DNA of 64,000 nucleotides from NCBI GenBank assembly GCA_017676145.1, contig GCA_017676145.1_3628.1; one strand, written 5' to 3'. The notes below the pieces were generated by a model. It did not search any database, was not told where the DNA came from, and was given only the letters and a program-made list of their open reading frames with translations. This document shows positions 37,601 through 62,427 of this stretch, piece after piece; the first letter of the stretch is position 1; each line of letters starts with the position of its first letter. A program made the translations under genes and the position numbers. Source of the DNA: a phage.

Positions 37601-40252
37601 CTGATTGCAAGAATAGTCCCGCATATAGTCATAATCAGAGTATTTGTTGTTTGCATCCTCGTTCCAACACATATTAAGGTTGGTGCCGCCCATGCACACA
37701 ATATATTCTTCAACATATTTATCACTTCTGGTGGGAATACCTGTGAACCATCTGTTAACAGGTTCGTTCCAAGCGGTACGCTCATCTTTAACGCAGATCG
37801 CAATCCAGTCATGTGTTCCTGTTTTCTTGCACACATCTCGCTTCATACCATAGTAGAATTCTTTAGTATTCGGCTCAGGTGCGCTTATCAGGTAGCTCCA
37901 CGCTTGGTCTGCATAGGTTCCGTCGGTGCGTGGGTCATGATCAAAAGCGTACATAATGATCCTTTCCCCGCCAAGATGTTCACCAAGAGTAACTTTGATG
38001 TTCACATCCCCGTAACCATTGCGAACAACATCCATATTGTCAATAGAGATGCCTCTGGGTGTGTAGGCAATTTTCAGCGAGTTATCCTCACTGGTGCCGC
38101 CAAGAGTAATCCCAATATTGTTTGTCGTCCCGTCGGCATATCTTACCGTGGCTTCCCAGCGTATTCCGAAATATCCTACGTCATGGCTGACAATTTTTAG
38201 TGTACGAGCACCTGGGTTCGGTTTCCCAGGATCAGGCCAAGGGTTTGGGTGTTCGTGAACAGTCAACGATGTCCCGTTTTGTTCGTTGACCTGCAACATT
38301 TTACCACCTCTGCCGTTTGGGTTGAACTCCCATAAGGCCTGTGTCTGCACCAAGTTATCATAGGTATTTCGTCGCTGATTATAAATCTCTTGGGTAACAT
38401 CAGAAGTTACTGATCCAGCATCCATTCTATGGAGTCTGATCATATACGATGTATCCCCTTCTACTGCAGGCTGAGCCGCATTCAGTCCAAAGTATACGGT
38501 GTCATTAACATGGAACTGTTTGTTTCTACCGGCAGTATGCCATTTACCATCAGACGGGTACGCTGGGACGATAGTGTTCCAGTTCAAATTCCTTGTTGTG
38601 TGGGTCCTGCCTGTGCCATGTTTGTCATGATAGGTTATTTTTACAGAGTACAGGCCACGTCTATTAACATTCCTGTTATACTGGGTAACAATAACTTCGT
38701 TGGCCCCACCGTGGTTCCAGTTGGTAGAGAATTGGTAATTTGCATCTGTAACAACCGTGCCTGCAGCATTTACCAGTTCAATCTTATCAATAATGAACGT
38801 GGCCCCTTCTGGTTGAGGCTTCAATTTCATCTTGACCGTATCACCAATGTAAATATTGCTAACACTGCTAACACCGTTAACGTCGAAAATATCTTCAACA
38901 CCCCAACTATCTACTGGGACATTTTTATACCAATTCTCAGGTACCTCCGTGAACCCTTGGCTATTAAGTCTGCCGCCAAACAGGTTATTAGAGCCTGCAA
39001 AACTTCCCCTTGGGATACCTGACCACCAAAGTTTACCATTAACAACAGTAAAGGTTCCTAAAAAACCCTCCCTGTGAATGCCTTGGAAATAAACACTCTC
39101 TGTCCAGCTAACTGGGAGGCGTTGCTCAACGTATTTGGCTGTGGCAAGAGCTTGGTAGTGGATAAAATTGGCCCTAGGGCTATTGTTTGCAGATTGTGCA
39201 CCAATATCATTACATAAGTTGCGAGAGAATCCACGATACTGCTTAGTGCCATTATTGAAGAAAATACCGCTTGTTCCGTACCCACGAGCCATTATTACTT
39301 CATGGGTGTAGGTAATATTTAAGGAACGCCATGTATCATCTCCCCAGACATTTTGCCCGTAGAATACGTTAACAAGCTGCTGGTCATCAGGTCTGTGCAT
39401 TCTTTGTGTTACAACCACTGCCCCGTTCGGACCGCACATGAACCCTTTCCACTCCTCATCTGCAGGAATACCTCTCAAATCGTCACGGGTAATCTGAGCA
39501 GGAGGCCAAACAAGGTCGTTTCTACTGTTGTTTCTCAGAAAATCGTACCCAGCAATCCAGAAACCTCTAGGACCACCGAAAATAACAGAGTTATCATGCA
39601 CCTCACAGTTGATGCTTGGGTTTTTCCAAGGACCTGTTTCAGGATTTTCCGATGTTTCACCAATCTTTACAGGGGTTGCATGCTGGTTTTTATCCACATG
39701 TAAAGATCCGTAGGTGTTGTTACCAGATCCGTACAGGTGTAAAATGCCAGTGCCTTCTGCCTCTGCAATAACCCAAACAGTGTTGTTAATACCGCCCATC
39801 ACCTCAACAAGACGCTCTGGGTGGGTGTCAAGGTGCAACCCTTTAACAATCTGTTCAGGAAGAGGTGTCCACTCGCTTACGTAAACATCATTACCACCTG
39901 CCGCAGTGGATCCGATAAGACCTGCAGTGCAGCCGATGTAGAAAAACTGGTTATCAAAAGTCCGAATCACAAACGCACGGTCTGCTCTCCACACATGATC
40001 AACATTCCAGGCTGTTTCGCTAGGGTAGTTTATAGGGTTACGATCCCCAGTGCGACACTCCCCGAACTTGTTATAGCCAGTGATATTAAGTTGACCGTCG
40101 TCAAAAAGTATAGCTAAGCTATTTACATAGGCTACTGCAGTGCTTGTACCGTCACTGTTGTCTATTGGGTATGACAGAACAGCAAGTTCCTTAACTCCAC
40201 CCCTCTTATCGAGGAAATGACGACCAAGTTTTAGCAAAGGGATTGGAAGCAT
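34616..40252 (-). CDS. Giant tail fibre / adhesin-like structural protein (1878 aa)
   Basis: Longest ORF in the window; C-terminal Big_2-like Ig segment (ATVDATTGLVTFKATGNVTIKFVVTDDAGRK); Gly/Trp-rich repeats consistent with beta-rich domains; last gene of the late block; GGAG RBS. Confidence 0.6.
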   Translation of the reverse strand: MLPIPLLKLGRHFLDKRGGVKELAVLSYPIDNSDGTSTAVAYVNSLAILFDDGQLNITGYNKFGECRTGDRNPINYPSETAWNVDHVWRADRAFVIRTFDNQFFYIGCTAGLIGSTAAGGNDVYVSEWTPLPEQIVKGLHLDTHPERLVEVMGGINNTVWVIAEAEGTGILHLYGSGNNTYGSLHVDKNQHATPVKIGETSENPETGPWKNPSINCEVHDNSVIFGGPRGFWIAGYDFLRNNSRNDLVWPPAQITRDDLRGIPADEEWKGFMCGPNGAVVVTQRMHRPDDQQLVNVFYGQNVWGDDTWRSLNITYTHEVIMARGYGTSGIFFNNGTKQYRGFSRNLCNDIGAQSANNSPRANFIHYQALATAKYVEQRLPVSWTESVYFQGIHREGFLGTFTVVNGKLWWSGIPRGSFAGSNNLFGGRLNSQGFTEVPENWYKNVPVDSWGVEDIFDVNGVSSVSNIYIGDTVKMKLKPQPEGATFIIDKIELVNAAGTVVTDANYQFSTNWNHGGANEVIVTQYNRNVNRRGLYSVKITYHDKHGTGRTHTTRNLNWNTIVPAYPSDGKWHTAGRNKQFHVNDTVYFGLNAAQPAVEGDTSYMIRLHRMDAGSVTSDVTQEIYNQRRNTYDNLVQTQALWEFNPNGRGGKMLQVNEQNGTSLTVHEHPNPWPDPGKPNPGARTLKIVSHDVGYFGIRWEATVRYADGTTNNIGITLGGTSEDNSLKIAYTPRGISIDNMDVVRNGYGDVNIKVTLGEHLGGERIIMYAFDHDPRTDGTYADQAWSYLISAPEPNTKEFYYGMKRDVCKKTGTHDWIAICVKDERTAWNEPVNRWFTGIPTRSDKYVEEYIVCMGGTNLNMCWNEDANNKYSDYDYMRDYSCNQWFNQPGYADRQARVNPAIFTDTQVFLTKQANEVQTFKNKYDPNKWFYNCYGAFFWGPGELPNGGSCFEAATYASDRFMGQVKKYKIIPGPETLGNAVDPYIVMTVLRSNMDGTSMSMQVPVTNGYKRVVMIIKCDLIGKQVLAENGTSTHLFETALHYQFADSPFAGDKRISDTDNARCKKFMLGGGWWWYEFDLTDKFTDTSKVVTGLRLDLGENMHKSVCDGTYGDPTIYLKYVSFEHPEDVVYGPKLRLFGNWIAKDRAGMGKKVRGFLVDAGTEDMLVNAVWPELPGTQWDNSAKSINWFNIHRAMWATNCYLWKELNDGAFGFTGGRRMAIICWTTLQRCYDHDYEIGGRAWKNIRDRIITNFADPNGGGAYGFDCSRLIHLNGSSAYKKEGYSGSMIEWGLVKDSRVLMGQQLAAAIGPNAVQSVKPAWFDIPLWSSGTPGTAAINPTTGDLEISWEDLKQVGGWDKTGYQVQWWRSDGSLAADEFVKDNFYTMSSAKAQQLFGQATPSTITMSMCCKDTRTGALGPRVAKVFSGIKWNLPVQSVSWKQIGDNKLLVTPACQFNATLNVDPAVAANSAKASDFSVSNTAMADVRKIDTLNARITCKNTYGTFQIINNFTDADSKVVRTASQTLSLGTLAYAALITEQSATLQGGGVGKSIATPVWKPNEWVVFDLTVDFSSDNNWTWVRNCLSQLMGGPNSVSDSQDSTDPSVFQVGKTHPETGAPLPDRKYALVCISYGKADVTFSGTHTYNGTYNFSKKYSLKAGNIVDEVGALYNPGNGIGIVGGKLQMQEPSITPSNVPGIRKTWESSNTNIATVDATTGLVTFKATGNVTIKFVVTDDAGRKTSSTSFTVKQMAPQWRMWIGTATNGAYPNPAGTSGMKTFSTSKPMEYGSGPKVGQMVYFGAYIPEIIGLPRSQLQLLFGAGVDDLATFGYRDNIDAARSSGWVGFRMESGKEGRILGTASIGVMFPGDQQYRLEAYATFSR

Positions 40253-45443: not shown

Positions 45444-47516
45444 TTATGAGAAGTCTGGCGGGACAACATCTTCTACATACCCTTTCAGAGCAACCTGCCC
45501 CATATGGAGCACGGTAGAATCCCTAGCGGTAACAGTGATGCTGTCAGACATTACTTGCGGGTATGCCCACACATACTGTTTTACCTCAGGGTATCTATAC
45601 TCTATGGTTGCCATGTTCCCGCAGATACATCTCCATAAAAATTCTTGGTAATTCCTGGTTGGGTCGTAGCCATATACCGGAGCAAGCTCTTTGCTAGGAA
45701 CGAACCCTGCAAGGTATTGTATTTCAGACGGTTGCCAACCTAACTTAACGATAGGTATGTTTACAGACTCTTTTGCCTTTTCAATACCACCCTGCATCAC
45801 CCAATCGTAGCACTCAGTGCAGAAGAAATCAAGAGCACCTGCTTCCTTTTTATATTGGTCAGCAAGGTTCAGCTTTTGCGTAAGCTCGGTTTCCATAATG
45901 GTCGGGAAAAACAGCAAAGCTGTCATCTGAGCCGATGCAGCGTGTGCTTTTATTGCCTTTGAAATAGCTGCAATACGAGCGCCAAGCTTACCACGACAAA
46001 ATGCTACATACTTGTCATAAACACCGCCAGTTTTAGGATCGTCAATAGTCCCAATGTCTAGTGCATATTCACCAGTCTCATCATAAAACGCCTGTTTTGT
46101 AGGGTAGTCATAAATACAAGGCTTACGAGTATCGGTATTGAACCACCACCACGGTTCACCAATCTGCATAATTACTGGCAGGTTGTTTCTCATAGCGGCT
46201 GATGCAAAATTCTTAAATACTGCAGTAAGGAAATTCATACCCTCTTCAATGGTTGGAGACAAGAGGTAACTACAAGGCGTATAGCCTGTTTTAGCATAGT
46301 TATCGTTCCAATCTCTCTGGGTCCATTCCAACGGACAGGCATCGCTATAAAGCTCAAAGCTTACAGACTGCATAACGTCGAAGTCATGTCGCTTGGCATT
46401 ATACATAAAGTCATCGTGCCATTTATAAGCTGCAGCGTTTAGAGCCCCTGTCCTGTTTATAGACCATTGGGTTCCGGACCATGTGTAATCATAATAATGG
46501 CTCATACCAACATAATGGTTTATGGTTCCGGTATAGCCCAGACGCTTGATATTGCTCACCACCCTTAAAGGAGATACGTTCCACATATCGTCATATGCTG
46601 TGCAGATCCCAACGTCGTGCTCTTTCACCTGGATATTGTTAAGTTGCATCATTTTCCAGCCTGTGTCTGGCTGAAGCAGATCTAGACGCAACTCACACTC
46701 TACATTTTCCGTTCTTGGGTCTGTACTATTACTTACCCAATCTTTAGGCATAAGTGGTATTAGAATCCTTCTCACCTGTCGAGGATCAACACCCATCATG
46801 TTGTTGTTCTGGTCCATCCCGACGCAGTCCTCGAAATCAATATGAATTTCTGCAACATTCTTATCCTCTGAGATGCTGACAGCATATTGAGCTAAAGGAA
46901 CATAGATGATTGTGCCATCAACAAGGTCTACAGTCATAATCATCTTTTCAGGGGTGGAGAAGTTGCTGGCATTGGTTATTGACATTCTGAACCAAAGCTT
47001 GGTGTTTCTCATCTCGTAGTGATCATCAAATCCAATGCCGAAATGGTCATACTTGTCAACTGTTTCCCAAATGCACCCAGCCATGCCTCCATATGTTCTT
47101 GACACTAAACGGTTAATACAGCAGTTATTATCTGCAACAATACAGGTGCTTTCAGTCTGCTGGGTAGTTGTAACCCAATATCTTGGGTGAAACATTCTCT
47201 CCTCAACAGTATCCCAAGATATTCTGTCAAGATTCTCATCTGAAACTATTGTGCATTTCGCTCTTTGTGTTCCAATCATAACCCCTTGAGAGTTTGATGA
47301 AAACTCCATAAAGAAGCTTCTTGGCAACCTGTTTGGCAATTTGTCAACAATTTCTACAGGGATCTCAATACTGGTTGCCCCAACCGGGATAGTTACATCG
47401 CCCTCAACATGATCATAATCTCTACCTGGAACTGCAGTATCCTGAACTGTGCGGTAATGAAACCGTGCAGCCATCGTAGAGTAATCACGGTAAGGTTTAA
47501 AAACAGCTGTTGCCAT
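45444..47516 (-). CDS. Baseplate- or fibre-associated structural protein
   Basis: 690-aa ORF in the late structural block, adjacent to baseplate genes; no diagnostic motif. Confidence 0.5.
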   Translation of the reverse strand: MATAVFKPYRDYSTMAARFHYRTVQDTAVPGRDYDHVEGDVTIPVGATSIEIPVEIVDKLPNRLPRSFFMEFSSNSQGVMIGTQRAKCTIVSDENLDRISWDTVEERMFHPRYWVTTTQQTESTCIVADNNCCINRLVSRTYGGMAGCIWETVDKYDHFGIGFDDHYEMRNTKLWFRMSITNASNFSTPEKMIMTVDLVDGTIIYVPLAQYAVSISEDKNVAEIHIDFEDCVGMDQNNNMMGVDPRQVRRILIPLMPKDWVSNSTDPRTENVECELRLDLLQPDTGWKMMQLNNIQVKEHDVGICTAYDDMWNVSPLRVVSNIKRLGYTGTINHYVGMSHYYDYTWSGTQWSINRTGALNAAAYKWHDDFMYNAKRHDFDVMQSVSFELYSDACPLEWTQRDWNDNYAKTGYTPCSYLLSPTIEEGMNFLTAVFKNFASAAMRNNLPVIMQIGEPWWWFNTDTRKPCIYDYPTKQAFYDETGEYALDIGTIDDPKTGGVYDKYVAFCRGKLGARIAAISKAIKAHAASAQMTALLFFPTIMETELTQKLNLADQYKKEAGALDFFCTECYDWVMQGGIEKAKESVNIPIVKLGWQPSEIQYLAGFVPSKELAPVYGYDPTRNYQEFLWRCICGNMATIEYRYPEVKQYVWAYPQVMSDSITVTARDSTVLHMGQVALKGYVEDVVPPDFS

Positions 47517-49810: not shown

Positions 49811-52800
49811 TTAGTCGTGAGACTCGTTCCAAGGTCCCTGGAAGCTTGAGTTAGAACGACTAACGATCACAGTGGGACAGGAGATTGTGACACCTGTCAC
49901 GCTAGACGTTGACCACGGTGTGTAAATCTCGATAACAATGTCTATAGTTTGTTCACCCAGACCTGTTATCCCTACCGCACACATGCCGTTGTTGTCGTTA
50001 AAATACTTCTTGCCAGCAAGGATCTGATGACCAGCTATCCATGCATTCAGTTGGGAGCTGGCAAGAGTACCATTCAGTTTAAAGAAGAATGTTACGTTCT
50101 TACCCTGACCTGAAACGTTATCTACGTATCTCCACCTCCAACGGCAAACCCTTTGCTGGGAGTTATATACTGGAGCACAATCCCCGTAAGTCCTGTGTGC
50201 AACAATTGCACCTTCGAACTGGTTAGCGCGGATAACAGAAGCTTCTACACGACCACGGAAGGTACCTCCGGTTGCATCTATGGTGCCTCTAAAGCTACCA
50301 TTATTGGCATAAACATCCCCACGGAAGGTACCACTGGTGGCGTTAACTGCCCCTGTGAAGTTACCTGCACTAGCGTTGATGTTACCTTTCACCCACACAT
50401 CCATAAACTGGGCGTGCCCGTTCTTGTTAATATACCAACCGTATTTGTGGTACCCGTTGCCATCGTAGTTGTTAGACGAAATTTCTTGTGCAATCTTGGC
50501 AGAAGAGATCGTCCCGTTCTCTATAAAGGCATCTTTCAAGAACGCTTGGTTGTTCTTAATTGCGAAAGCAAGGGTTGCTGTTCCATTCCCAGGGTTGTAT
50601 ACCGCAAAGTTGTTTGCACTAACCATGAAGTATGATTGAACTTGGCCTCCAGAACCTTCCATGCCCAATTGGATACCTGCCACATACTTATTCCCTGCGG
50701 AGTCTACCTGTATTTTTGTGCCCCATTGAGCATTTACTTTGCCCTCTAAGTCGGTCACAGCCTTAGATGTTGTAGCCACTGCAGCTCTTAGCTCTGATAC
50801 ATCCCCAACATCATCAATGATCTCCTGCTTAGCAACAGCAAGTTCTTGACGAATAGCTGACGCTGTGCCGTTAATAAGATCCACAGTTGCTTTGTTGGTA
50901 TCGGAGATTGTAGCGTCCAGTGCTGTTTTTGTGGAGGTCAGCTTACCATCCAAATCCGCAATCGCCTGTTTGTTGGTAGAAATCTCCCCACGTGCAGAAG
51001 TTATCTGCTCAGACAGTGCGGAGGTTTTCTGATTCAACAAATCTGTGGTGGCCTTGTTGGTATTGGCAATCAAGGTATTGAGATCAGTTTTTGCGGTAGT
51101 TATCTTACCATCAAGGGTGGCATAGTTCTTAGATACCGTCGCGTTTGTCTGACTGATCTTTTGATCCAGAGTTTCAGAGGTCCTGTTAAGAAGATCCACT
51201 GTCGCCTTATTGGTGCTCAAGATGCTTGCGTCAAGTTCTGTTCTCTGGGTATTGATCTTGCCATCCAGAGTTTTATCTCCGGCAAGGTATCCGCTCTCCA
51301 CTCCACCTATTTGTTCTACCAACTCCCCTTTGGCTGCAACCAATTTCTCGTCTAAAGCCTCTGTCTTTTTGTTCAGAAGATCAGTGGTTGCTTTATTGGT
51401 TGTCTCAATCAGGGATGCCAGTCTTCCACTTTCAGTGTTCAGATCGTTGGTGAACTTGTTCTGTGCAGCAACAAGTTTCTTATCCAGCGCTGTGATATTG
51501 CCATTGACATCCTCAAACTTCTGAGTTGTCTCTGTAACTACAGCACCTATCCTATCCCCAAGTTGTTGGAATGCCTCATCTACCCTTCCGTCCATGTACT
51601 TGTTAAGTTCTGTGACACGATTTTCAACCTCTTCAATAGAGGAATCTAAAGTGCTCATCAACTCTTTATAAGTTTCTGTCTTTTTAAATTCAGCATCTAT
51701 CTGAGGCATCAAATCTTCAATGGAGGTATAGCAGCGTGCAGCACACTCTACAAACTGAGAACTACCAAAAGCATTTGTGGTTCGAATATACCAATAATAA
51801 ATCTTATCGTTCTGCAGACCTTCAGATGTCCAAGTTGAACCAACACCCATGCGGGTGGCTTTTGAAGTAACGGTTGCATCACTTGTGTCCGGCAACCTTG
51901 TCATACCAGATGTCCAAAAGTCATACTGGGTGCTTACACTTGCCAAGTCCCTACTGTGTGGAATCAGGGTGATAGCAAAGTACCCCTGCTTAACTTCTAC
52001 AGAAACCGGAGCTTCAGGTGCCTGAATGTTAAACTCGCAGTACGCTTCTGGAGATACACCGCCTTTATAAGATGTTGCAACCACGGTTGCTGTGTATGAC
52101 CCTTTGGTCAATCCTTCTACGCGGACAAACTGCTCGACTGTTTGTGCTGTCCAAATAATCTCTCCGTTCTTTCTTACCTGCACAATATTTTGAGCGTAAG
52201 TCCCAACGTTGTCCCAAGCTAAAACACCGTGAGTTACTTCTCCAGCTTGGAGAACGGAATATCTGAAGTTTTGCGGTTGAGCTACACCAGATGGGGATAT
52301 CGGAATATCTACATCGCCAGAATCCGGAAGTTGCCCTGTGGCATCATTCCACTCTTTAGCATCTTGACGAAGTTTTACCTTGACACCGCCCTTTTTGGTG
52401 AACTCCCATTCAAGAACCCTCATTTCTTGGCCCACTATACCAATACTTGGGAGGTCCATTGTAACATAACGGCCAGGCTTAAATTTAAAACCTCGCATAT
52501 TGCAGGTGACTTCAATAATCCTGCCAGCTCTAGCACGTCTTAAGAAGATTGCAGAAACACGTTGAGCTTGATAAGGACTGGTAACAAAGCGATAGTCTAT
52601 ATCGATTATCTTTCTTTCTCCATCCTTCTCTATCCACTCTGGTACAAACACTGATGGGAAATCTGTTTCAGAATACCCTTTGGTCGGACTAGTGAATCTG
52701 CCAGTTATCGTGTTAGATCTTTTGTCAAATGAGGCTTCCGGATAGATCTTAACCTCACCACAGACACAGTCCTCACTCAATGTCATTGTTGCCGGACCAT

Positions 52801-53650
52801 AGTATGCACCAACCAGCAAACCATACTTACCAGCAACATAACTAAGGTCTGCACCGCAAGCTTTCAGCATTTCTGCCATAATACTTGCTGGGGCCTCATC
52901 CATGTCAAACTCACCGTTAATGGTGTAACGTCGCTCACTGGTGCCGTCAGCGTTTTTTACCGCCTCGTCGCATATGTTGGCAGCCTCCTTGAAGGACTCC
53001 CAGTTGATGGTTTCGTCAGGACATTTAAGGTACGTTCTTAAATAGTCTAGGATCACCAAGGCCGCGTTATTGGTATACACCTCTTTACTGGTGCGAGGAT
53101 CATAACATTTTTTACCAACCTTGATGAGTGTAACGTTTGGCAACCCAAAAGGAAACTTGTTAGGGTCAAACCTGAAGCTAACACGTAGCCAGCTGATCCC
53201 TCTACCTATCATGTCCGGTGACCACGATGGGCAGTGTGTGCCCATGAAAGGATCAGAGGTTTTTCTGTCGTTATGTAGCTCCCACGATACCAAATCTCCA
53301 TACGAAGAAATAGGATTACCGTCGATAAGTATATCTTCTATACCTTCTAGCGGGTGATTGGCAAGAACAATGGCACAATGGAGGGTTCTGTCTCTATCCT
53401 GCTCCAAAAACGCAAGCAATCCAGATGTGCGTGTCTTCCCATACACTACAGAGCAAGGTGCAGCAGAAGATCTGAGAAGCTTTTGTCTATCTTGCTGACT
53501 TCTGTAAGATTTGTTACCCTCGAAAATCTTATCCAGAGTTCTGGTGGTAACAGTGTTCAGACTGTCAGCCAGAGCTGCCTTGGATGCGTTCCAGTCATAG
53601 CTTGAAGATCTTGCAGAAGCAACGATGTTATCAATCATTGCAATTGGCAT
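49811..53650 (-). CDS. Large tail/baseplate-attached fibre protein with internal coiled-coil repeats
   Basis: 1279 aa; four ~35-aa repeats each containing TNKAT(T/V)DL(L/I)N; Gly-rich C-terminal segment (NFTGAVNATSGTFRGDVYANNGSFRGTIDATGGTFRG) typical of fibre tips. Confidence 0.6.
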   Translation of the reverse strand: MPIAMIDNIVASARSSSYDWNASKAALADSLNTVTTRTLDKIFEGNKSYRSQQDRQKLLRSSAAPCSVVYGKTRTSGLLAFLEQDRDRTLHCAIVLANHPLEGIEDILIDGNPISSYGDLVSWELHNDRKTSDPFMGTHCPSWSPDMIGRGISWLRVSFRFDPNKFPFGLPNVTLIKVGKKCYDPRTSKEVYTNNAALVILDYLRTYLKCPDETINWESFKEAANICDEAVKNADGTSERRYTINGEFDMDEAPASIMAEMLKACGADLSYVAGKYGLLVGAYYGPATMTLSEDCVCGEVKIYPEASFDKRSNTITGRFTSPTKGYSETDFPSVFVPEWIEKDGERKIIDIDYRFVTSPYQAQRVSAIFLRRARAGRIIEVTCNMRGFKFKPGRYVTMDLPSIGIVGQEMRVLEWEFTKKGGVKVKLRQDAKEWNDATGQLPDSGDVDIPISPSGVAQPQNFRYSVLQAGEVTHGVLAWDNVGTYAQNIVQVRKNGEIIWTAQTVEQFVRVEGLTKGSYTATVVATSYKGGVSPEAYCEFNIQAPEAPVSVEVKQGYFAITLIPHSRDLASVSTQYDFWTSGMTRLPDTSDATVTSKATRMGVGSTWTSEGLQNDKIYYWYIRTTNAFGSSQFVECAARCYTSIEDLMPQIDAEFKKTETYKELMSTLDSSIEEVENRVTELNKYMDGRVDEAFQQLGDRIGAVVTETTQKFEDVNGNITALDKKLVAAQNKFTNDLNTESGRLASLIETTNKATTDLLNKKTEALDEKLVAAKGELVEQIGGVESGYLAGDKTLDGKINTQRTELDASILSTNKATVDLLNRTSETLDQKISQTNATVSKNYATLDGKITTAKTDLNTLIANTNKATTDLLNQKTSALSEQITSARGEISTNKQAIADLDGKLTSTKTALDATISDTNKATVDLINGTASAIRQELAVAKQEIIDDVGDVSELRAAVATTSKAVTDLEGKVNAQWGTKIQVDSAGNKYVAGIQLGMEGSGGQVQSYFMVSANNFAVYNPGNGTATLAFAIKNNQAFLKDAFIENGTISSAKIAQEISSNNYDGNGYHKYGWYINKNGHAQFMDVWVKGNINASAGNFTGAVNATSGTFRGDVYANNGSFRGTIDATGGTFRGRVEASVIRANQFEGAIVAHRTYGDCAPVYNSQQRVCRWRWRYVDNVSGQGKNVTFFFKLNGTLASSQLNAWIAGHQILAGKKYFNDNNGMCAVGITGLGEQTIDIVIEIYTPWSTSSVTGVTISCPTVIVSRSNSSFQGPWNESHD

Positions 53651-54087
53651 TAATACCTCCAGACATCAACAACGATAGAATCTTTCATATCGAACGTAAA
53701 GATCCCTTTATCACCTTTCGCCCAAATCTGGTTGTTCCAGAACACACCAGCGGTGAGGCCGTTCAGACCTTCGAAAATAACAATATCGCCACGCTGAACC
53801 TGTTTAGGAGTATCCAGTCTAGTCAAAAAGAGATCAAAAATAGTAGGCAGGTGTGTGGTTTTGAAACGGAGCATGCACCATCTCTTGCTTTCCAACTCTG
53901 TTTTATACGTTCCTTCAAAGTTAGAAAGAAAATCTGTTCCGTATTGGGCATCAACACACTTAGCCGCAAAAGTGCAACAATCGTGGAATCCCCATTCAAA
54001 CGGGACGGTGGCTTCTTCGTCAAATACTTTCCACAATTTTTCTTGCCAGTCTACTAAACGAGGGTGTGTGCTCATTAAACCTCCCAA
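53650..54087 (-). CDS. Tail-associated protein, possible NlpC/P60-like cysteine peptidase fold
   Basis: 145 aa; FHDCCTFAAKC near the N-terminus is compatible with an NlpC/P60 catalytic Cys; weak call. Confidence 0.35.
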   Translation of the reverse strand: MGGLMSTHPRLVDWQEKLWKVFDEEATVPFEWGFHDCCTFAAKCVDAQYGTDFLSNFEGTYKTELESKRWCMLRFKTTHLPTIFDLFLTRLDTPKQVQRGDIVIFEGLNGLTAGVFWNNQIWAKGDKGIFTFDMKDSIVVDVWRY

Positions 54088-54641
54088 ATGATCGGGCGGC
54101 TCGCCACCTGATCCACATATTTAAAAAATCTGTCATTATCGTTTCTTGAGCTATGGCTTTCCTCTGTGTATCGGTAAGGAAAACCTCTTAACCAGCTGTT
54201 GAAGATGGAAGAGATGGATATGGACAAAGCACTATTCTCCCCTGTCTGAATAGCCATGTCCGTTATAAGGCCGTCAAACAAGCCATTAGTTGTAACAGGC
54301 AAACCATTCTCCATAGCGGTGATATACAACGTGGCACGGCAACCGGAATACTCAGTCTTCAGAAGATCACCTACATACTTGGGATCAAACCCGTTCAATG
54401 TTGCTACCACAGATCCGAAGTTGGTGGCATCTTTCTCAGACACAGCAGTCAATGTTGCTGATCCACCTATCCCTATAAAATGTTGCCCCTCAATAACCAC
54501 AACACCAGTTCCTGAGCACACCCTGACAGTCCCTGTTGGCAGCTCTAGCTTTGCAGCAATTAAGATCTCAACACCATCAAGCTCTAGCTTTTCAAGAAAT
54601 AAATTATCTAATGGCGCTCTTATCATCTTAGAAATCCTCAA
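54075..54641 (-). CDS. Tail/baseplate-associated hypothetical protein
   Basis: 188-aa ORF in the late block. Confidence 0.45.
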   Translation of the reverse strand: MRISKMIRAPLDNLFLEKLELDGVEILIAAKLELPTGTVRVCSGTGVVVIEGQHFIGIGGSATLTAVSEKDATNFGSVVATLNGFDPKYVGDLLKTEYSGCRATLYITAMENGLPVTTNGLFDGLITDMAIQTGENSALSISISSIFNSWLRGFPYRYTEESHSSRNDNDRFFKYVDQVASRPIIWEV

Positions 54642-55218
54642 AGAAGTTGATAACTATATTGTCACCTTTCTGCATAGCATCAACCTTTTGCTTAATTTTA
54701 TAAAGATCTCGGATATGAAATCTACCCTTCGGAGATTGAGTTATTATTTTCATGGTATCCCCTGCGGCAATGGGTTTCCTAAGTCTTGGGGATATGTTTA
54801 TAACAGCGGCCCCAACACCATCACTTCGTACTGAGGCTGTCACCACTTTCAACTCATCATTGACAGATATTTTATCTCCAGCTCTGGCTATATCCCTGTT
54901 AGGCTCCCAACCAACCGTCTTCAAAAAATCGTCGTTACCAGTCGGTCCTAGAGCGATTGGCTCATTGGAGGTCACTGAATGCCCATAAGCCTTGATAAGA
55001 AAAATGTTTCCATCTTTGTAAACCTGATCAACAAAACTTTTAAGCTCTAACAACTGAGACTCGCTGATATTGGAAACCGTCAAAGTGCCTTTCCAATTAG
55101 GTGTGGCATAGGTTACTTTTTGCGTTTTACCTGTAAACGGGCTTTTAAACGTAACAATATCTGCCAACAACTCCAATCTAATGTCTGGAAGGTATCTAGG
55201 CCTTTCCCATAAAAACAT
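54628..55218 (-). CDS. Tail/baseplate-associated hypothetical protein
   Basis: 196-aa ORF in the late block. Confidence 0.45.
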   Translation of the reverse strand: MFLWERPRYLPDIRLELLADIVTFKSPFTGKTQKVTYATPNWKGTLTVSNISESQLLELKSFVDQVYKDGNIFLIKAYGHSVTSNEPIALGPTGNDDFLKTVGWEPNRDIARAGDKISVNDELKVVTASVRSDGVGAAVINISPRLRKPIAAGDTMKIITQSPKGRFHIRDLYKIKQKVDAMQKGDNIVINFFEDF

Positions 55219-55283: not shown

Positions 55284-55310
55284 ACAAAAAGCCCCCGCCG
55301 AAGCGAGGGC
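55284..55310 (-). terminator. Rho-independent terminator (minus strand), TTCG-loop hairpin
   Basis: Minus strand reads gccctcgc-ttcg-gcgggggc followed by TTTTTG; directly after the stop of the 1268-aa fibre gene. Confidence 0.6.
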
Positions 55311-55317
55311 AAAACAG

Positions 55318-58300
55318 TTACTTCAATTTTCCTTGTAACTCGGTGACAACCTCTGTCAATTTTTTAACCTGTTCCTCAAGGGAGGTTATTCTATCATCTT
55401 GTTCTCTGCAAACCTGAACAAGCAATCCTGTTACAGCAGCATAGTCAACATTATAGAATCTTTCCTCGGTCATCAGAGGAATACCATCTTGAGTAGGACC
55501 AGGAACCTCTTTCCTTTTCACGAAAGAACCAACCGCTTCAGGTAATGCTTCCATAACCTCTTGAGCAATTACCCCCGCGTGAGGCATACCATTCTCTTTT
55601 AGAGTGTAGGTATAGCCTTTCATCTTACGGATAGCTTCCAGCGCGTTAGGAATAACCTCTATGTTATCCTTCAGGTCACGGTCAGAGCTCTGGCTGACAG
55701 CAGTGCACTCTACTACGCCGTTAACAGCAAGGTACCTTGACTTGGCCTCATCTGTCTTAGCACCACAATGCCATACCCAACTGGCAGATGTAGCGTTGTC
55801 GTTTATCTGGAACTCAAGCACGTTCTTCCTGTCTGCGCCATTACCCCAGTAGTACATTCTGCCTGTATTAGAAGGCATGTTGGAAGTGTTGGTAACATCA
55901 GTCCCACCACCTGTATGTATCATGAACTCCGGGTCAAGATTGGAGCCTGCGGTTTTAAGAGTAATTCCCTTACCACCAAGCTGCTGCCAAGGTCCCCATG
56001 TGAAAACACTACCTATTGTTGTTCCATAACGCAGGAATTTTTCCCCAAGATATGATATATACTCCTGTACGCAACTCTCTGGAACATTGGCGTAGTTCCT
56101 GTACACTATAAGCGTACCTGCTCGGGAGCATGGGTAGTTTCTATCAGGTGTGGCTTGAGCATTGGCCTCCTGATGATAAAAACCTTCCCTATCCCCTTTA
56201 TAGTCGTTAAGGTCATTAACCCCCAGACCTTGCCCTCTGTGTTGTATGACCTTGTTCCACGCTCTATGGTTACCACCCTCGATAGACCTGGTGTATAACT
56301 GATCAAGGCGACCAGCCATTTGGAAAGCATAGTTCCCAGAAAAAGCCACAGACAGTCCACCAACAACCATCGAACCTTCTGGTCCGTTGACGTTGCCAGC
56401 CATTATTTTGGACGGGTTATTAGGCCCAAACTGGTTGTTCCAGTCTGCACCAGTGTGGCATACAAAACCACCAGGAGCTGAGAAAGTGCCATCTTTGTTG
56501 AAGTTGTAGAATCTGTGAGCAGAACCTACAACATCACGAACAATAACTTGACCAGCCTCTGGAGTAGATCTGAACTCTGCCTGTCCTTGCAGTCTTGCGC
56601 CATTACCGCATTTAGAGGTAAAGGTATTGTTGATCAGATCCTCTGTTCCTTCCGATGCAGCTTGGAACCCTGCGTTAGAGAACAGTGCTTTTCTAGTGGT
56701 TTGGCTACCCGGGCAAATGTAGTTAAGACCGTTGTACCACATCTCTACAGGGGGCATTTCTGTCTTACTCATCAGAACCATTCGGTCAGGTGTGCCTATA
56801 TAGTGCCGATCTGTACTACCGCCTGTATAGAACCCAGGTGTTCCCTTGAACTCCGCAAGAGTCCTAGTGTTTGTTACATCATCACCTTTAATTGCAAGGC
56901 TTAAATTATCCGACGCAAGAGGGGCGCAAAACTTGACACCATCTTGGTTATTAGTAACATTTCCTACCTGCCAGTCATTTTCTCTGGTAAATACCTCAAG
57001 AACGTTTCTGCTTGTGTAGACACTGACAGGGAAAGCACGCGACTCAACATAGAATGCAACATACTCCTGCTTTCCTCTGGTTGGGGATACACATCCAAGA
57101 ATTGCTTTCTCGTTTTGGTAGAAATTAATAACCCCTTGGAAAGAATCCCCTCTGTCTGTCCACCCACCGGTTCTATAGTGACACTGTAAGGTCGCACAGT
57201 TCATAGGGTCACTGCCAGATGACGATCTGGTAACTATAGTAATATCAGTACCAGTTGTGGGCGCATAGTATGGATCTGTTCTAACGATGATTGGGTAGTA
57301 TTTCCCATCTTCCATTCCTGCAGTTCTTGGCAGTGTTAAGAAATCTTTTACGCCTGCCGCTACAGGAACTTTGAACAGATTCTGAGCATCTGCTAAAGTT
57401 GTAGCTCCAGTGCCACCTGCGGCCTGAGGTAAAGGTTCCCACTTGGCCTTCCGGTTGTTATAAACACCCCATTCCAGAGTACCATTACCGGACTCATCCA
57501 TCCCTCCATCCCAGACGACCATCTTGGCGGCTTTCTTGGAACCCCAGAATCCTCTTTCTGCCCCTGAACTACGAATCCATTCTCCAAGTCCCCAGTTTGT
57601 CAGCTGACCAGTGAGATCCCCGACCTGCATGTACTTAGGACAATCTAATACACCATCTTCACGGAATCCTAAATACCGATGAGTTTCAGATCCTTTTGCG
57701 CCTTTGTGCAGGTGGACTGTTAACCAAGTCTTATTGTCGTTTCTTACCTCGGAGTAGATCCTATACCCATGCTCAAGGACACCGTCAGCACTGTATTTGT
57801 CCCCGTTAACAATACCTGATGCCGACTTAACATCAGCAGAGCTTTGAGACAGGTAAAGGTGCCCGAAGGTAGGGGAATTTCTAGACCCAAGACCGATGTG
57901 CGATCTAAAAGTATCATCGTTACGAGGTCTGACCATTGGCTGCCATGCAGTCCACTGGTTTGTGTTGGCCTGATAGGTTCTTAAATACCAAACATCTACG
58001 TTAGAGAATGGATAGTATTCCTGACGACAGCCAGTGCCACCGTTAGCATTGTTCTGCCAAACAATCAAGTGACCAGCACCAGAACCTGCAGGATAACCAT
58101 TTGCCTCAGTTGCATTAGCTGTCATCGGCTGGTAGTATATGCCGTCCTGATTACCAGTCAAGTTATTGATATTGAAATTTGCCTCAAGGGCTGCACGTTG
58201 CTTATAGAAAGCACCGATATTGATACGGACTCCAGCGGCATCTCTGGCTCCTGTACCGCCTTGCTCTATAGCAAGAGGTTGCCACGAGGCTGTTTGCTGG

Positions 58301-59124
58301 TTCCACATACCCCAACGGCCTGTTGCATCAAGCTGCAAGTACCCTGCCGTGTTTAAATCATCTCCAGCACGGATAACTGTTCTTGTTGGGTTGTTTGCCT
58401 CCAGGCGTTTAAATTCATCACGAAGTGCTATTCTTTTTGTTGTTGCTACACCGTTGGTTACTGCAATGGTATACATGGCTCCAGAGGTAGCGCCACGGAA
58501 AATACCATCAACAGTCGTAGTATCACGACGAGATACCACACCGTTCAAAAATTTTTCACCAGCTGCTTCAGAGGGGTAGTTAGTAGTTCTTCCCTCTTCA
58601 ATAACTGCAGGACCAACAAAGTTGACAAGGTGAATAACATCGCCTACAGTATGCACTGTACCAAAATCTACCCGCTGTGCAAGTGCTTTAGCATCGTTGG
58701 CTGTCTGAACCGTAACATCCATTACATCCTGGACAGACTGCCCTTCGGCTGTCATGATCATAGATGCGCCAATGGTAGACTCCAACTCCTCCCTTAAGGA
58801 CGGGTCTGTATATACCATCCATGCAGCATCAGTAATCCCACCATCAGAGTACGGTGAAGACAGTGCAGGCACAGTGTGTGGAAATTCGCCTTTCCAACGC
58901 AGGTAGAGGTCTTCCTCTTCGAAGTAGGCAAAATCCATTGGGCCGTTTAACTTACCACCTTCCTTAAAGGAGATTACATGAGAAACAGTCCCATCCACAT
59001 GGACAACATCGCCAATTTTTACACGACGGGTCAGGTCTGGTTGTTGAACAACCAGGTAATCATCCTCTGTCACTGCGGTAGTGGCAGGAAGAGATTCAAT
59101 TCTGACAACTTTAATATCAGCCAT
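55318..59124 (-). CDS. L-shaped-tail-fibre-like protein with C-terminal intramolecular chaperone (peptidase S74) domain
   Basis: 1268 aa; C-terminus SQSSDRDLKDNIEVIPNALEAIRKMKGYTYTLKENG...LEEQVKKLTEVVTELQGKLK matches the self-cleaving chaperone domain (Ser...Lys dyad, SDxxLK) of T5 pb1 and endosialidases; N-terminal domain paralogous to the 61759-62427 product. Confidence 0.7.
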   Translation of the reverse strand: MADIKVVRIESLPATTAVTEDDYLVVQQPDLTRRVKIGDVVHVDGTVSHVISFKEGGKLNGPMDFAYFEEEDLYLRWKGEFPHTVPALSSPYSDGGITDAAWMVYTDPSLREELESTIGASMIMTAEGQSVQDVMDVTVQTANDAKALAQRVDFGTVHTVGDVIHLVNFVGPAVIEEGRTTNYPSEAAGEKFLNGVVSRRDTTTVDGIFRGATSGAMYTIAVTNGVATTKRIALRDEFKRLEANNPTRTVIRAGDDLNTAGYLQLDATGRWGMWNQQTASWQPLAIEQGGTGARDAAGVRINIGAFYKQRAALEANFNINNLTGNQDGIYYQPMTANATEANGYPAGSGAGHLIVWQNNANGGTGCRQEYYPFSNVDVWYLRTYQANTNQWTAWQPMVRPRNDDTFRSHIGLGSRNSPTFGHLYLSQSSADVKSASGIVNGDKYSADGVLEHGYRIYSEVRNDNKTWLTVHLHKGAKGSETHRYLGFREDGVLDCPKYMQVGDLTGQLTNWGLGEWIRSSGAERGFWGSKKAAKMVVWDGGMDESGNGTLEWGVYNNRKAKWEPLPQAAGGTGATTLADAQNLFKVPVAAGVKDFLTLPRTAGMEDGKYYPIIVRTDPYYAPTTGTDITIVTRSSSGSDPMNCATLQCHYRTGGWTDRGDSFQGVINFYQNEKAILGCVSPTRGKQEYVAFYVESRAFPVSVYTSRNVLEVFTRENDWQVGNVTNNQDGVKFCAPLASDNLSLAIKGDDVTNTRTLAEFKGTPGFYTGGSTDRHYIGTPDRMVLMSKTEMPPVEMWYNGLNYICPGSQTTRKALFSNAGFQAASEGTEDLINNTFTSKCGNGARLQGQAEFRSTPEAGQVIVRDVVGSAHRFYNFNKDGTFSAPGGFVCHTGADWNNQFGPNNPSKIMAGNVNGPEGSMVVGGLSVAFSGNYAFQMAGRLDQLYTRSIEGGNHRAWNKVIQHRGQGLGVNDLNDYKGDREGFYHQEANAQATPDRNYPCSRAGTLIVYRNYANVPESCVQEYISYLGEKFLRYGTTIGSVFTWGPWQQLGGKGITLKTAGSNLDPEFMIHTGGGTDVTNTSNMPSNTGRMYYWGNGADRKNVLEFQINDNATSASWVWHCGAKTDEAKSRYLAVNGVVECTAVSQSSDRDLKDNIEVIPNALEAIRKMKGYTYTLKENGMPHAGVIAQEVMEALPEAVGSFVKRKEVPGPTQDGIPLMTEERFYNVDYAAVTGLLVQVCREQDDRITSLEEQVKKLTEVVTELQGKLK

Positions 59125-59136
59125 TCTTTCTCCTGA

Positions 59137-59155
59137 AAGGGGGCAAACAGCCCCC
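59137..59155 (-). terminator. Stem-loop between tailspike and fibre genes
   Basis: ggggg-caaacag-ccccc hairpin; on the minus strand followed by TTT and the AGGAGA RBS of the fibre gene. Confidence 0.35.
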
Positions 59156-59159
59156 TATG

Positions 59160-61757
59160 TTAAAGGTACAATCCACGGTATTGAGCATAAAGTCCCAGAC
59201 CGCGAAGGATTTCGCCAGAGTGATAGCCTACCGGATCAGAAACTGCCCAGCAGCCGTTTAAAACATTATCCCCGTTAATGAAGTGGTGCTTTTGCAGTAA
59301 CTTCACACAGGCTTCTACAACAATATCTATTTGAGGTATTGTCTCTGAATACCCGCAAAGACCTAGCCAGCAGCAACCTGCAAGCCATTCACCTACCACC
59401 CACATCCTGTCACCTCTGTCTTGATAAGAATATCCTCCTGAGGTGTTAAAGTCTGTAGGGAGATTTCCGGAATGAGATGACTGGAATCTGTTGAGGAACC
59501 ATGCCCATTTCTGGCAGAACAGGAACAGTCTTTCGTCAACAGGTTCTTTATGTTTCTTAAGCTCATATAGTGTGCGGCACGCAGCAACAAAGGCTCTTGA
59601 TTGGAGTTTAGAGTTATCTACCATCTCCCACCAACCAGTCAACCCTTCATTACCCCTCTGCCATACGTAGCGGGATGCAACTGGTCCTTCTGTTTTAAAT
59701 GTGTTATTATACCAAACTTGGGAGTCGTACATAAATCCAATTGTATTTGCCAATCTTTGACGATCTATGTTTTCCGCACCCATACAGTAGACTACCGGAT
59801 ATTGCATTCCGGGATAGGGCCAATTTGGCCTTTCCTCTAGAAGATAATTTTCCTTATCTATCACCTTTCCGGCAGGGAACACACCTGGAGTGTGTCTGTA
59901 TGCGCCTTGCTTGTAGTTTCTGACATAGCAATCACCAACCTTGGCGGTTGATTCTGTCTTGCTTGCCATCCATACACTAAACCAGATCAGATAAGCATCC
60001 CTATCTGCAACATAAAATTGCGGCAGCGTGTTGACGCAATACAGATCGAACAAGCCATTACCTATCTGCCTGTCGCTCAGACTGAAATCTACAGAGGTAA
60101 TTCCTTTAGGGTTGGCAAAGAAAGGTTTAATCTCATCTTCTGTGTGATGAGGTTGTGTTGGATCTAGTTTAAAATCACCTAGGGTAAGAGTTTCTGTTAT
60201 CCATTGTCCGTTAGTGGCATATAGATCAGCATACCATAACCAACGGTCTTTGTCAAGAAATTTGACCCTTACCATCTCATCATCTGATCGATAAGTTACT
60301 GAATTTAAAGAAATCTCTCTTCCAAAATTGAAAGTTACTTTGCCTCTTACTATGTTGCAACGGGTGAAGTTGTCGGAGTGGTTGTAAATGTCGGTATCAT
60401 ACTGCATACTAACACTAGCGCCACCGCTTACGGCAATGTTTTCCTCTTTTGGCAAGAGATACGGGTTACCGTCTTTACCAACCACCTCTACGAAATCAGT
60501 AACTTTGGCAACTGTCTCTGTTACTTCTGACCCTCCAAAAGGGACCCCTATCCTATACTGTTTTTTGTTATTGTTGCCATCATTAAGGATGAAATGTGGC
60601 TGGAACAGAACCCCCTCTCCTCCGAAATTCATAACAATTTCAGCATCTCTGCCTATCTTGTATGTAGTCCCTTTTTGGATTATTTCGCAAGGCTGGCGTG
60701 CGTTCATTCTAAAATTGATATACCCGTCGCTGTCCCTACTCATGACAGGAACTGTTCCTGCAACGAGACAAGTACCATCTGTGAACGGTGCCTTAATCAA
60801 CGTGGTCTTTCTAAACAACTTGTCGTAGGCATTTATATCACTGAAATTAAGCAACTTGTTGTAAGACTGTTTAAACGCGGTGTAATACTTTTCCTCGCCT
60901 GTCAAAGTGTAGAGTTGATAACAAGCGTCACACCACATTTCTTCCCCGTCCAACTCTGGGGCTTGATTGTCTGCAACCACATTTATAGGGTTTACAATTA
61001 CAGGGGATCCAGCAGGTATCACCGATCCACCCTGCTCTTGTGGCAATCTCACACAGTAGGTTACCTTGTGGCTGCCTGTAACACCCTTATCCTGCAGTTG
61101 GATTGTGCCGAACTCTGCAGACGTATGACCACTGTCGGCTATGCTACCGTTGGCCCAATAGCGGTTACCATCCCATGCTATATACCACTCAACCCACCAA
61201 CTTAATCCAGATGTTGTCCAATTTGGGTTAGCATCCGTGCCGCCGTAAACATCAGAGTCTACAGTGTTTCTTCCTAGCACACCGTTATACGCTTGAAATG
61301 CCTTGTCTAGGTATTCACCCCATGTCGGAGATCCAGCTGGGATTTTTCCTCTACCATTGGTAAAAGACACCACTACATCTTTAAACCCACCATGTGATGG
61401 GACCCCGTCTGTAGATAATGGGTAGTGGGACAATCTTTGCATTTTACTTTCTACTGCATATGCACCCAGAAGATGACTGTTGTAGGCTTCCCAGGCTTCT
61501 TTGGCCCTATCTAGATAAAAATCGCTTTTCGATGCCCTGTATGCTTCAATGTATCCCAGAATCAACACAGCCTGAGCTTCATGCATTGCCCAATCATTAT
61601 TTATCTTACTCCCTGACCAACCTGACGCTATAAGTCCATCCTGGTTTACCAGCTTGTTCTGCGTGGAGAGATTGGTAATGCCTGTGTTATTATCGAGGCA
61701 CTTCCTGTGCCCCTCAATCATCTGAAATACGTTATCAATGTTGTGTTGAATACGCAT
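59160..61757 (-). CDS. Tailspike-like protein with putative glycan depolymerase domain
   Basis: 865 aa; Trp/Tyr-rich (HEAQAVLILGYIEAYRASKSDFYLDRAKEAWEAY, WWVEWYIAWDGNRYW) consistent with a carbohydrate-active fold; starts 1 nt after the stop of the anchor-domain gene, with its own GGAG RBS. Confidence 0.5.
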   Translation of the reverse strand: MRIQHNIDNVFQMIEGHRKCLDNNTGITNLSTQNKLVNQDGLIASGWSGSKINNDWAMHEAQAVLILGYIEAYRASKSDFYLDRAKEAWEAYNSHLLGAYAVESKMQRLSHYPLSTDGVPSHGGFKDVVVSFTNGRGKIPAGSPTWGEYLDKAFQAYNGVLGRNTVDSDVYGGTDANPNWTTSGLSWWVEWYIAWDGNRYWANGSIADSGHTSAEFGTIQLQDKGVTGSHKVTYCVRLPQEQGGSVIPAGSPVIVNPINVVADNQAPELDGEEMWCDACYQLYTLTGEEKYYTAFKQSYNKLLNFSDINAYDKLFRKTTLIKAPFTDGTCLVAGTVPVMSRDSDGYINFRMNARQPCEIIQKGTTYKIGRDAEIVMNFGGEGVLFQPHFILNDGNNNKKQYRIGVPFGGSEVTETVAKVTDFVEVVGKDGNPYLLPKEENIAVSGGASVSMQYDTDIYNHSDNFTRCNIVRGKVTFNFGREISLNSVTYRSDDEMVRVKFLDKDRWLWYADLYATNGQWITETLTLGDFKLDPTQPHHTEDEIKPFFANPKGITSVDFSLSDRQIGNGLFDLYCVNTLPQFYVADRDAYLIWFSVWMASKTESTAKVGDCYVRNYKQGAYRHTPGVFPAGKVIDKENYLLEERPNWPYPGMQYPVVYCMGAENIDRQRLANTIGFMYDSQVWYNNTFKTEGPVASRYVWQRGNEGLTGWWEMVDNSKLQSRAFVAACRTLYELKKHKEPVDERLFLFCQKWAWFLNRFQSSHSGNLPTDFNTSGGYSYQDRGDRMWVVGEWLAGCCWLGLCGYSETIPQIDIVVEACVKLLQKHHFINGDNVLNGCWAVSDPVGYHSGEILRGLGLYAQYRGLYL

Positions 61758-61758
61758 C

Positions 61759-62427
61759 TTAGATAGCTCCTGCTATAATCAGTGCCCCGTACCAAGTTAA
61801 CCCGTTGTCGTAGGTTTCTAACTTGAAAATATCTGTTGCACCAGCTGTAAATGTTAGGATAGGATCTCTTCCGTATGCCCATTTAACATTATCAGGCCAA
61901 TAGACTTTGTTACCGCCAGAGGTCTGAGTAATGCATACGGTTATAGTTCTCGCTACCCCTTCAAGACCTTCTGTCTGATTTTCAAAAGAGATTGTGGTAT
62001 TTGAAGTTAGTCGAACTTTAAAAGTGTCCGCAACTTCAAGATCCATATCAAGCTGACCACCAATAGATCCGTAATCAACTATTCTGCCAGAAGAAGTTGC
62101 AGCAAGCTCCCCAAAAACAGACCAGGCTTTTGCAGACACACCCCCAGCACCCTCTACAGTAGAGTCTGGGAGGATTATTTTAGGATAATCCCCGTTCCAC
62201 GTGTAGTAGCGCTTAGTTTCTGGATCATAAGCAAAGTCCTTCTTGCTCTTAAGATAACCACCCTCTGTGAAATAGACTATCTTAGTAATGCTAAGATCGT
62301 TGACAACATCGTCAATCTTAGCCTTTCTTGTCCCATCAGTCTGGTTGACAACCAAGAAGTCATCACTCAGGACTGTTTCTGCATCTTCAAGATCTGGAAT
62401 TGGTATTGTAGGATAAGCTACAGCCAT
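61759..62427 (-). CDS. Tail fibre/tailspike N-terminal anchor (adaptor) domain protein
   Basis: 222 aa; N-terminus DFLVVNQTDGTRKAKIDDVV...YFTEGGYLKSKKDFAY parallels DYLVVQQPDLTRRVKIGDVV...SFKEGGKLNGPMDFAY of the 55318-59124 product. Confidence 0.55.
   Translation of the reverse strand: MAVAYPTIPIPDLEDAETVLSDDFLVVNQTDGTRKAKIDDVVNDLSITKIVYFTEGGYLKSKKDFAYDPETKRYYTWNGDYPKIILPDSTVEGAGGVSAKAWSVFGELAATSSGRIVDYGSIGGQLDMDLEVADTFKVRLTSNTTISFENQTEGLEGVARTITVCITQTSGGNKVYWPDNVKWAYGRDPILTFTAGATDIFKLETYDNGLTWYGALIIAGAI

Follow-up and report, generated by a model that had tools for sequence, protein, structure and literature searches.

A linked pair of small and large tail proteins in an rV5-type Vequintavirus as a candidate adaptor-cargo appendage

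The 64,000-nucleotide (nt) stretch of phage DNA analysed here, hereafter the window (GenBank assembly GCA_017676145.1, contig GCA_017676145.1_3628.1), carries three consecutive tail genes at positions 55318-62427. According to the list of open reading frames (ORFs), they encode a small tail protein of 222 amino acids (aa) (61759-62427; the equivalent of rV5 gp43 and phi92 gp140), a large tail protein of 865 aa (59160-61757; rV5 gp42 and phi92 gp141) and a long tail fibre of 1268 aa (55318-59124; phrog_6578; rV5 gp41). These and all other window features given below by coordinates lie on the minus strand. By sequence comparison, the trio is the conserved gp43-gp42-gp41 tail-fibre block of rV5/FV3-type Vequintavirus, phages of Escherichia coli. 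Comparative evidence links gp43 and gp42 (gp140 and gp141 in phi92) as one baseplate-mounted unit that is testable on clonable proteins. We consider it rather probable that the trio specifies two appendages with similar N-terminal anchors: a fibre with a C-terminal S74 chaperone domain, and an adaptor with its cargo.

Linkage of the small and large tail genes

Direct reading bore out the three ORFs, their coordinates, the 1-nt gap and the separate ribosome-binding site that an earlier sequence-only reading of the window had described. The junction of the 222-aa and 865-aa genes is ...GCAGGAGCTATCTAA-G-ATG, i.e. TAA-G-ATG, with a stop-start gap of 1 nt. The 865-aa gene is offset by +1 in frame relative to the 222-aa gene and is preceded by an AGGAG (61767-61771) that lies within the last codons of the 222-aa gene, 9 nt upstream of its own ATG.

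Outside Vequintavirus, a separate pair with a TAATG overlap or a gap of a few nt was found in phages phi92, phAPEC8, emiel, phiEa104 and SPN3US. The lengths of the small and large proteins are 157 and 958 aa in both phAPEC8 and phi92, 207 and 985 aa in the Rosemountvirus emiel, 156 and 1005 aa in SPN3US, and 244 and 1157 aa in phiEa104. The upstream small proteins of these five lineages have only their last ~100 residues (the C-domain) in common, while their N-terminal parts vary, and the overall length of small proteins ranges from 156 to 561 aa. A constant C-domain joined to a variable N-terminus is what one would predict for an adaptor that links an unvarying cargo to different baseplates. 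Searches by tblastn detected the large protein in 525 phage records and the C-domain in 525, with nearly identical counts per genus. Altogether, the unit is distributed over Stephanstirmvirinae, the Ounavirinae genus Kolesnikvirus (to which phiEa104 belongs), Rosemountvirus, jumbo phages of the SPN3US type and Vibrio phages, as well as P2-like prophages.

We retrieved 80 IMG/VR loci with the large protein, 71 of which have assessable upstream sequence. An ORF ending in the C-domain is located directly at the start of the large gene in 62 of these 71 loci, usually overlapping it or lying a few nt apart. In nine loci the large protein instead has an N-terminal extension, and no locus among the 71 had neither arrangement. 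The extension is the full-length P2 baseplate protein gpI (Tail_P2_I, E 5e-52). Such in-frame fusions of gpI and the large protein, ~1100 aa long, were observed on the P2-like contigs L038, L041-L043, L045-L047 and L050-L052, most of which are 13-20 kb in length. The one fusion locus that was examined (L038) retains the canonical V-W-J-I-H-G-sheath order and also encodes an ordinary tail fibre and its chaperone. At the level of gene architecture, the gpI fusion shows the large protein as a baseplate-mounted accessory joined through its N-terminus.

The sequence-only reading had left a choice between a two-component spike and a recently split gene. The first alternative fits the comparative data, given the linkage in all 62 unfused loci and the separate genes in five lineages. 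The second, in which the 222-aa and 865-aa ORFs are one gene interrupted by a recent frameshift or sequencing error at 61757-61759, draws on nothing except the 1-nt spacing and the +1 frame offset, and we treat it as practically excluded. The junction is identical in the independently sequenced phages WalterGehring and FV3, each protein recurs in ~120 records with at least 95% identity, and the genes are separate in the five distant lineages. A fusion of the small and large proteins was found in none of the 71 loci and in none of the top 150 of 3918 cluster representatives of the C-domain. Moreover, the 865-aa gene has its own AGGAG and ATG, and rV5 proteomics lists gp42 and gp43 separately (PMC3606486).

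We found no account of the gp43-gp42 (gp140-gp141) pair as a unit, of its spread over unrelated phage groups or of the gpI-fusion variant in the searchable literature, while adaptor-mediated branched fibre complexes as such are a known kind, represented by CBA120 and G7C.

Domain content of the three tail proteins

The small protein and the fibre share an N-terminal anchor module, which spans residues 1-104 of the 222-aa protein (62116-62427) and residues 1-105 of the fibre (58810-59124), as delimited in the latter by Pfam and pairwise alignment. The paralogy of ~100 N-terminal residues proposed earlier holds: an alignment of 99 residues (E 2e-18) pairs fibre residues 7-105 with residues 8-105 of the 222-aa protein at 38% identity. 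Among the window ORFs, only these two contain the module. In the 222-aa protein it consists of an N-terminal peptide of ~45 residues followed by a Tail_spike_N head domain (residues 51-104). Tail_spike_N was detected by Pfam in both paralogues (E 1.8e-10 and 3e-10; residues 46-103 of the fibre), and profile and fold matches in both identify it as the head domain of CBA120 TSP1/3/4 and G7C gp63.1. The first ~40 residues are a conserved peptide in their own right, which is also alike at the N-termini of phi92 gp140 and of the endosialidase gp143 (E 4e-5). Similarly, the N-terminus of the phiEa104 small protein gp072 resembles that of its neighbour gp071 (E 4e-15). In all lineages checked (the window, phi92, phAPEC8 and phiEa104), the small protein has an N-terminus similar to that of a fibre or spike protein encoded next to it.

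The 222-aa protein belongs to phrog_7760, annotated as tail fiber protein (E 6e-119). Its architecture comprises the anchor peptide, the tailspike head domain and a conserved C-terminal beta-sandwich (residues ~115-222; 61762-62085), and the mean predicted local distance difference test score (pLDDT) of its AlphaFold2 model is 78. The C-domain may resemble in fold the XD1-type sandwich of CBA120 TSP4, T4 gp9 and T4 gp10, which is located there among fibre-assembly domains. The C-domain is kept wherever the large gene occurs and holds an Asp-box-like motif, YDNGLTW (61762-61830). A sialidase assignment for the 222-aa protein was rejected, as nothing beyond this single motif resembles a sialidase; the label of sialidase domain protein on its BASEL homologues (MZ501111 bas51_0025) probably derives from the same motif. 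Profile searches of PDB sequences with small-protein alignments yielded nothing useful. Foldseek matched the small-protein model to baseplate chains of PhiTE (probability 0.35), but this hit was dropped because it could be tied to no described protein.

For the 865-aa protein, searches of Pfam and of PDB sequences gave no match, and no Pfam family reached threshold. Word-index homology searches with it yielded only five proteins. Its structure was predicted from a six-sequence alignment, which is a weak basis, and the resulting low-confidence model is an (alpha/alpha)6 barrel with more than 400 residues of beta-rich insertions. All top fold matches of the model are carbohydrate-active enzymes. 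A profile built from ten family sequences matched cellobiose 2-epimerases (E 5e-4) and GH76 across a helical-hairpin motif. These weak profile matches and the low-confidence model favour the (alpha/alpha)6 fold over the beta-helix among the two folds suggested earlier, and together they point to a putative (alpha/alpha)6-barrel glycosidase-like protein. Known (alpha/alpha)6 enzymes (GH48, GH88/105, GH76, GH8/9 and AGE-type epimerases) are 8-13% identical to it in sequence. Many of its acidic residues are invariant across relatives at 25-30% identity. The first predicted barrel helix begins at residue 2, and no anchor-type match was found. The former description as tailspike-like was not sustained: a beta-helix tailspike of the P22/CBA120 type was considered and rejected in view of the predicted (alpha/alpha)6 barrel and the lack of a Pfam or PDB sequence match. 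A review table that cites Schwarzer 2012 lists phi92 gp141 as a glycosidase (PMC5380687).

The fibre ends in a Peptidase_S74 domain (residues 1147-1268; 55321-55686) that makes up the last 122 of its 1268 residues, as had been proposed from the sequence; the part upstream of it matches tail fibres. The Pfam family (PF13884) aligns to residues 1147-1198 over positions 1-57 of its 58-position profile (E 1.6e-16); the score of 60.8 bits exceeds the cut-off of 22. A Ser-Lys dyad aligns as well: the domain boundary reads Q-S-S1147-D-R-D-L-K1152, with the dyad Ser1147/Lys1152 in the motif SDRDLK. The sequence SSDRDLK aligns with SSDRRIK of PDB chain 6f45, a phage long-tail-fibre distal subunit, and SDRDLK corresponds to SDGTLK at the start of the released C-terminal domain of phi92 EndoN92, the processing site of which is annotated in GenBank. 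By pairwise BLAST, the S74 region matches the C-terminal domain of EndoN92 weakly (E 0.011); therefore, the correspondence of the dyads rests on the Pfam match, the boundary motif and the 6f45 alignment. Self-cleavage is predicted to take place between Ser1146 and Ser1147 after folding.

Outside Vequintavirus, fibre residues ~170-1263 are 33-37% identical to long tail fiber proteins of T5-like phages. The window fibre is similar to T5-like long tail fibres in its body, and to the S74/CIMCD fibres represented by 6f45 and EndoN92 in its C-terminal S74 domain with the SDxxxK motif. Unlike T5-like fibres, it carries a tailspike-head-type N-terminal anchor, which is suited to a myovirus baseplate; T5 fibres attach at the collar. 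Of the three proteins, the fibre is the one that varies among Vequintaviruses. It is mostly 80-95% identical; in some relatives the distal part is replaced, and some match residues 1-1048 only. The 865-aa protein and the C-domain of the small protein are 95-99% identical in most Vequintavirus relatives. The variable fibre tip is probably a strain-specific binder.

An adaptor with its cargo and the alternatives

In the mechanism that we propose, fibre residues 1-105 would fix the long fibre to the baseplate or fibre network, and its S74 domain would assist folding before releasing itself by a cut at Ser1147. The 222-aa protein would act as a short adaptor. Since its N-terminus is paralogous to that of the fibre, it would occupy an equivalent docking site, and its C-terminal beta-sandwich would hold the 865-aa protein. 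The latter may be an (alpha/alpha)6 module that acts on or binds a conserved surface glycan. The two proteins would be translated from coupled genes and remain separate polypeptides. The fibre with its S74 domain is a highly probable part of this explanation; for the adaptor part, we put the chances at somewhat better than even. The adaptor role is favoured because the linkage is invariable, the N-terminus of the small protein is lineage-specific, the cargo has no recognisable anchor and the gpI fusion replaces the adaptor. An anchor is present in the 222-aa protein, none was recognised in the 865-aa protein, and the linkage is kept in 62 of 62 unfused loci.

Known phages provide parallels for both parts of this scheme. 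Phage phi92, known for its multivalent adsorption apparatus, encodes the same small-plus-large pair, gp140 and gp141, with a TAATG overlap, and follows the same shared-anchor logic, as its S74-processed gp143 (EndoN92) has an N-terminal peptide paralogous to that of gp140. However, phi92 gp140 consists of a ~45-residue peptide and the C-domain only, without a Tail_spike_N head, and the S74 protein of phi92 is an endosialidase, whereas that of the window is a long fibre. Moreover, phi92 does not have the lambda-like Dit/J genes that follow in the window; its gp143 is followed by gp144 and wedge genes. The CBA120 tailspikes TSP1-4 and the G7C proteins gp66 and gp63.1 have the Tail_spike_N head in common with the window proteins, and the C-domain of the 222-aa protein may be XD1-type as in TSP4. 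The principle is also alike, with one protein bearing the anchor and others riding on it. In contrast, docking in CBA120 and G7C proceeds via XD2/XD3 jellyrolls and the cargoes are trimeric beta-helix spikes, while the cargo proposed here is of the (alpha/alpha)6 type and no XD2 or XD3 was detected in the pair of the window.

The main rival explanation, which we regard as unlikely, treats the two proteins as independent, co-inherited appendages. The 222-aa protein would then be a short fibre complete in itself, binding a host glycan through its beta-sandwich; the 865-aa protein would be attached through another partner, and the genes would stay together merely because of a common surface polymer or joint regulation. 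A number of observations speak for this rival and weigh against the adaptor. The C-domain family is very large (3918 clusters at E<=1e-3) and far wider than the pair. The domain is nearly always located at the extreme C-terminus of fibre-like proteins, with two or more copies in 31 of the top 150 representatives and up to five matched stretches in one 2036-aa protein. On a siphovirus-type contig, at least one family member (P0010; L088 5001-6353), which has three C-domain stretches and carries Pfam PF26209 (Phage_phiTE_241_C), is encoded after a gpJ-like gene with no large partner nearby, which indicates that the domain can work alone. The same fold is a glycan-binding module in CpaA and StcE (PMC8825819), and XD1 of TSP4 is thought to be a spacer rather than a docking surface. 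In addition, the authors of a 2026 cryo-electron microscopy study of phi92 tried gp140 by itself as a fibre candidate (PMC13450770). Against independence, the C-domain gene is directly upstream of the large gene in every one of the 62 unfused loci, no anchor is recognisable in the large protein, and loci that lack the small gene have the large protein joined to gpI, which looks like the replacement of an attachment device.

Assigning a glycan-directed role to the proposed cargo also meets objections. The model of the 865-aa protein is of low confidence (pLDDT 51; predicted template-modelling score 0.44), the family-profile matches are short (~35 residues), and no catalytic residues could be aligned and no glycoside hydrolase family assigned. 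Alternatively, the protein might have no catalytic role and serve structurally or as a shield at the baseplate periphery, with an (alpha/alpha)6 scaffold merely retained; this explanation fits either mode of attachment, and we hold it to be distinctly unlikely. Besides the lack of a catalytic motif, it would account for the finding that the 865-aa protein is 95-99% conserved across 114 Vequintavirus records next to a fibre that varies, and infection of K-12 by these phages has been attributed to other proteins (PMC8594841; bioRxiv 10.64898/2026.04.02.716166). On the other side stand the top fold matches, all of them to carbohydrate-active enzymes, the many acidic residues invariant at 25-30% identity and the glycosidase entry for phi92 gp141 in the review table (PMC5380687). 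A role of the 222-aa protein as an assembly chaperone for the 865-aa protein, instead of a structural adaptor, would agree with the tight translational coupling and the small size, but is very improbable given that the protein has a tailspike anchor/head module paralogous to that of a structural fibre and that its rV5 orthologue was found in virions (PMC3606486).

With the adaptor-cargo arrangement retained, a further step, which we offer tentatively, is to view the pair as a plug-in appendage of two genes that moves horizontally. Cargo and adaptor C-domain would be constant, the adaptor N-terminus would be swapped for each baseplate, and the adaptor would be replaced by the gpI fusion in P2-like elements. 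The two proteins may have stayed apart since a trimeric adaptor would have to carry a cargo whose symmetry differs from its own. If this is true, a complex of the gp140-gp141 type is a candidate for the fibre density left unassigned in phi92-type baseplates; the 2026 study assigned no protein to fibre II and did not mention gp141 (PMC13450770). The unit could guide density fitting, the annotation of receptor-binding proteins and host-range engineering.

Genomic context and relation to known phages

The 7.1-kb region has 96% nucleotide identity with Escherichia phage FV3. It matches 123 phage records, nearly all of them Vequintavirus, and 114 of the 123 matches extend over at least 80% of its length. 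The three coding sequences are annotated with equal lengths and spacing in FV3 (ORF043-041) and in the BASEL phage WalterGehring, and rV5 and FV3 share these genes and their order with the window, with matching lengths and no substantive difference. Relative to FV3, the fibre is the most diverged part, with 95% amino-acid identity, and it is 80-95% identical to that of most other relatives. The phage of the window itself thus adds little, being a near-copy of FV3, and the multi-fibre "Swiss army knife" is textbook knowledge for the group.

The main elements of the sequence-only reading are already in the literature for rV5-type phages. The 2013 rV5 paper noted that the C-terminus of gp41 resembles the chaperone domain of the K1F endosialidase and that the N-terminus of gp43 resembles a tailspike N-terminus, and gp41, gp42 and gp43 were all found in rV5 virions as separate proteins (PMC3606486). 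The unusually large set of receptor-binding proteins noted earlier is likewise real, but not new: a multivalent fibre set is a published hallmark of rV5/phi92-like phages (PMC8594841, PMC3606486). Approximately 18-25 GenBank records are named Campylobacter phage (C3, C7, C14, C15, A142 and others, including MG065653-MG065662). The ones among the matches listed resemble rV5-type or phAPEC8-type proteins at the identities of E. coli phages (~97% for the rV5 type), and the host labels look doubtful.

Beyond the trio, the window contains several fibre-type genes, in line with the count of at least four made previously; their products are 1878, 581, 348, 346, 690 and 1279 aa long. In a close relative, the 348-aa and 346-aa proteins carry a short-tail-fibre annotation. 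The 690-aa protein (45444-47516), the equivalent of phi92 gp142, is N4 gp65-like and has Calx-beta, NCTSP_N and NCTSP TIM-barrel domains; recent work names phi92 gp142 as the binder of an NGR/ECA-type polysaccharide in these phages. The sole Pfam match of the 1878-aa protein (34616-40252) at E<=0.001 and above the cut-off is a Big_2 immunoglobulin-like domain near its C-terminus, and the protein is presumably another component of the fibre network. Directly downstream of the fibre, the interval 49811-55218 holds a siphovirus-style tail-tip gene set within a myovirus. This set includes a 196-aa distal tail protein (phrog_1302), a 188-aa tail protein (phrog_2048), a 145-aa DUF6950 protein and the 1279-aa gpJ-like protein with Ig_J, Ig_J_second and Phage_Tail_Tip domains.

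A strong intrinsic terminator is located directly 3' of the fibre gene (55291-55310) and consists of an 8-bp stem with seven GC pairs followed by TTTTTGTTT. Therefore, the trio closes a transcription unit that continues from the upstream baseplate hub, spike and sheath-initiator genes. Between the stop codon of the 865-aa gene and the ribosome-binding site of the fibre gene, direct reading revealed a G+C-rich hairpin, GGGGGC-TGTTT-GCCCCC (59139-59155), with an all-GC stem of 6 bp followed by TTTC. It may act as a partial terminator or in RNA stability and thereby set the ratio of fibre to adaptor expression. The region's plus-strand ORFs are short and run antisense to the long genes. The GC skew stays negative from 36 kb up to the window end, a part in which all long ORFs are on the minus strand.

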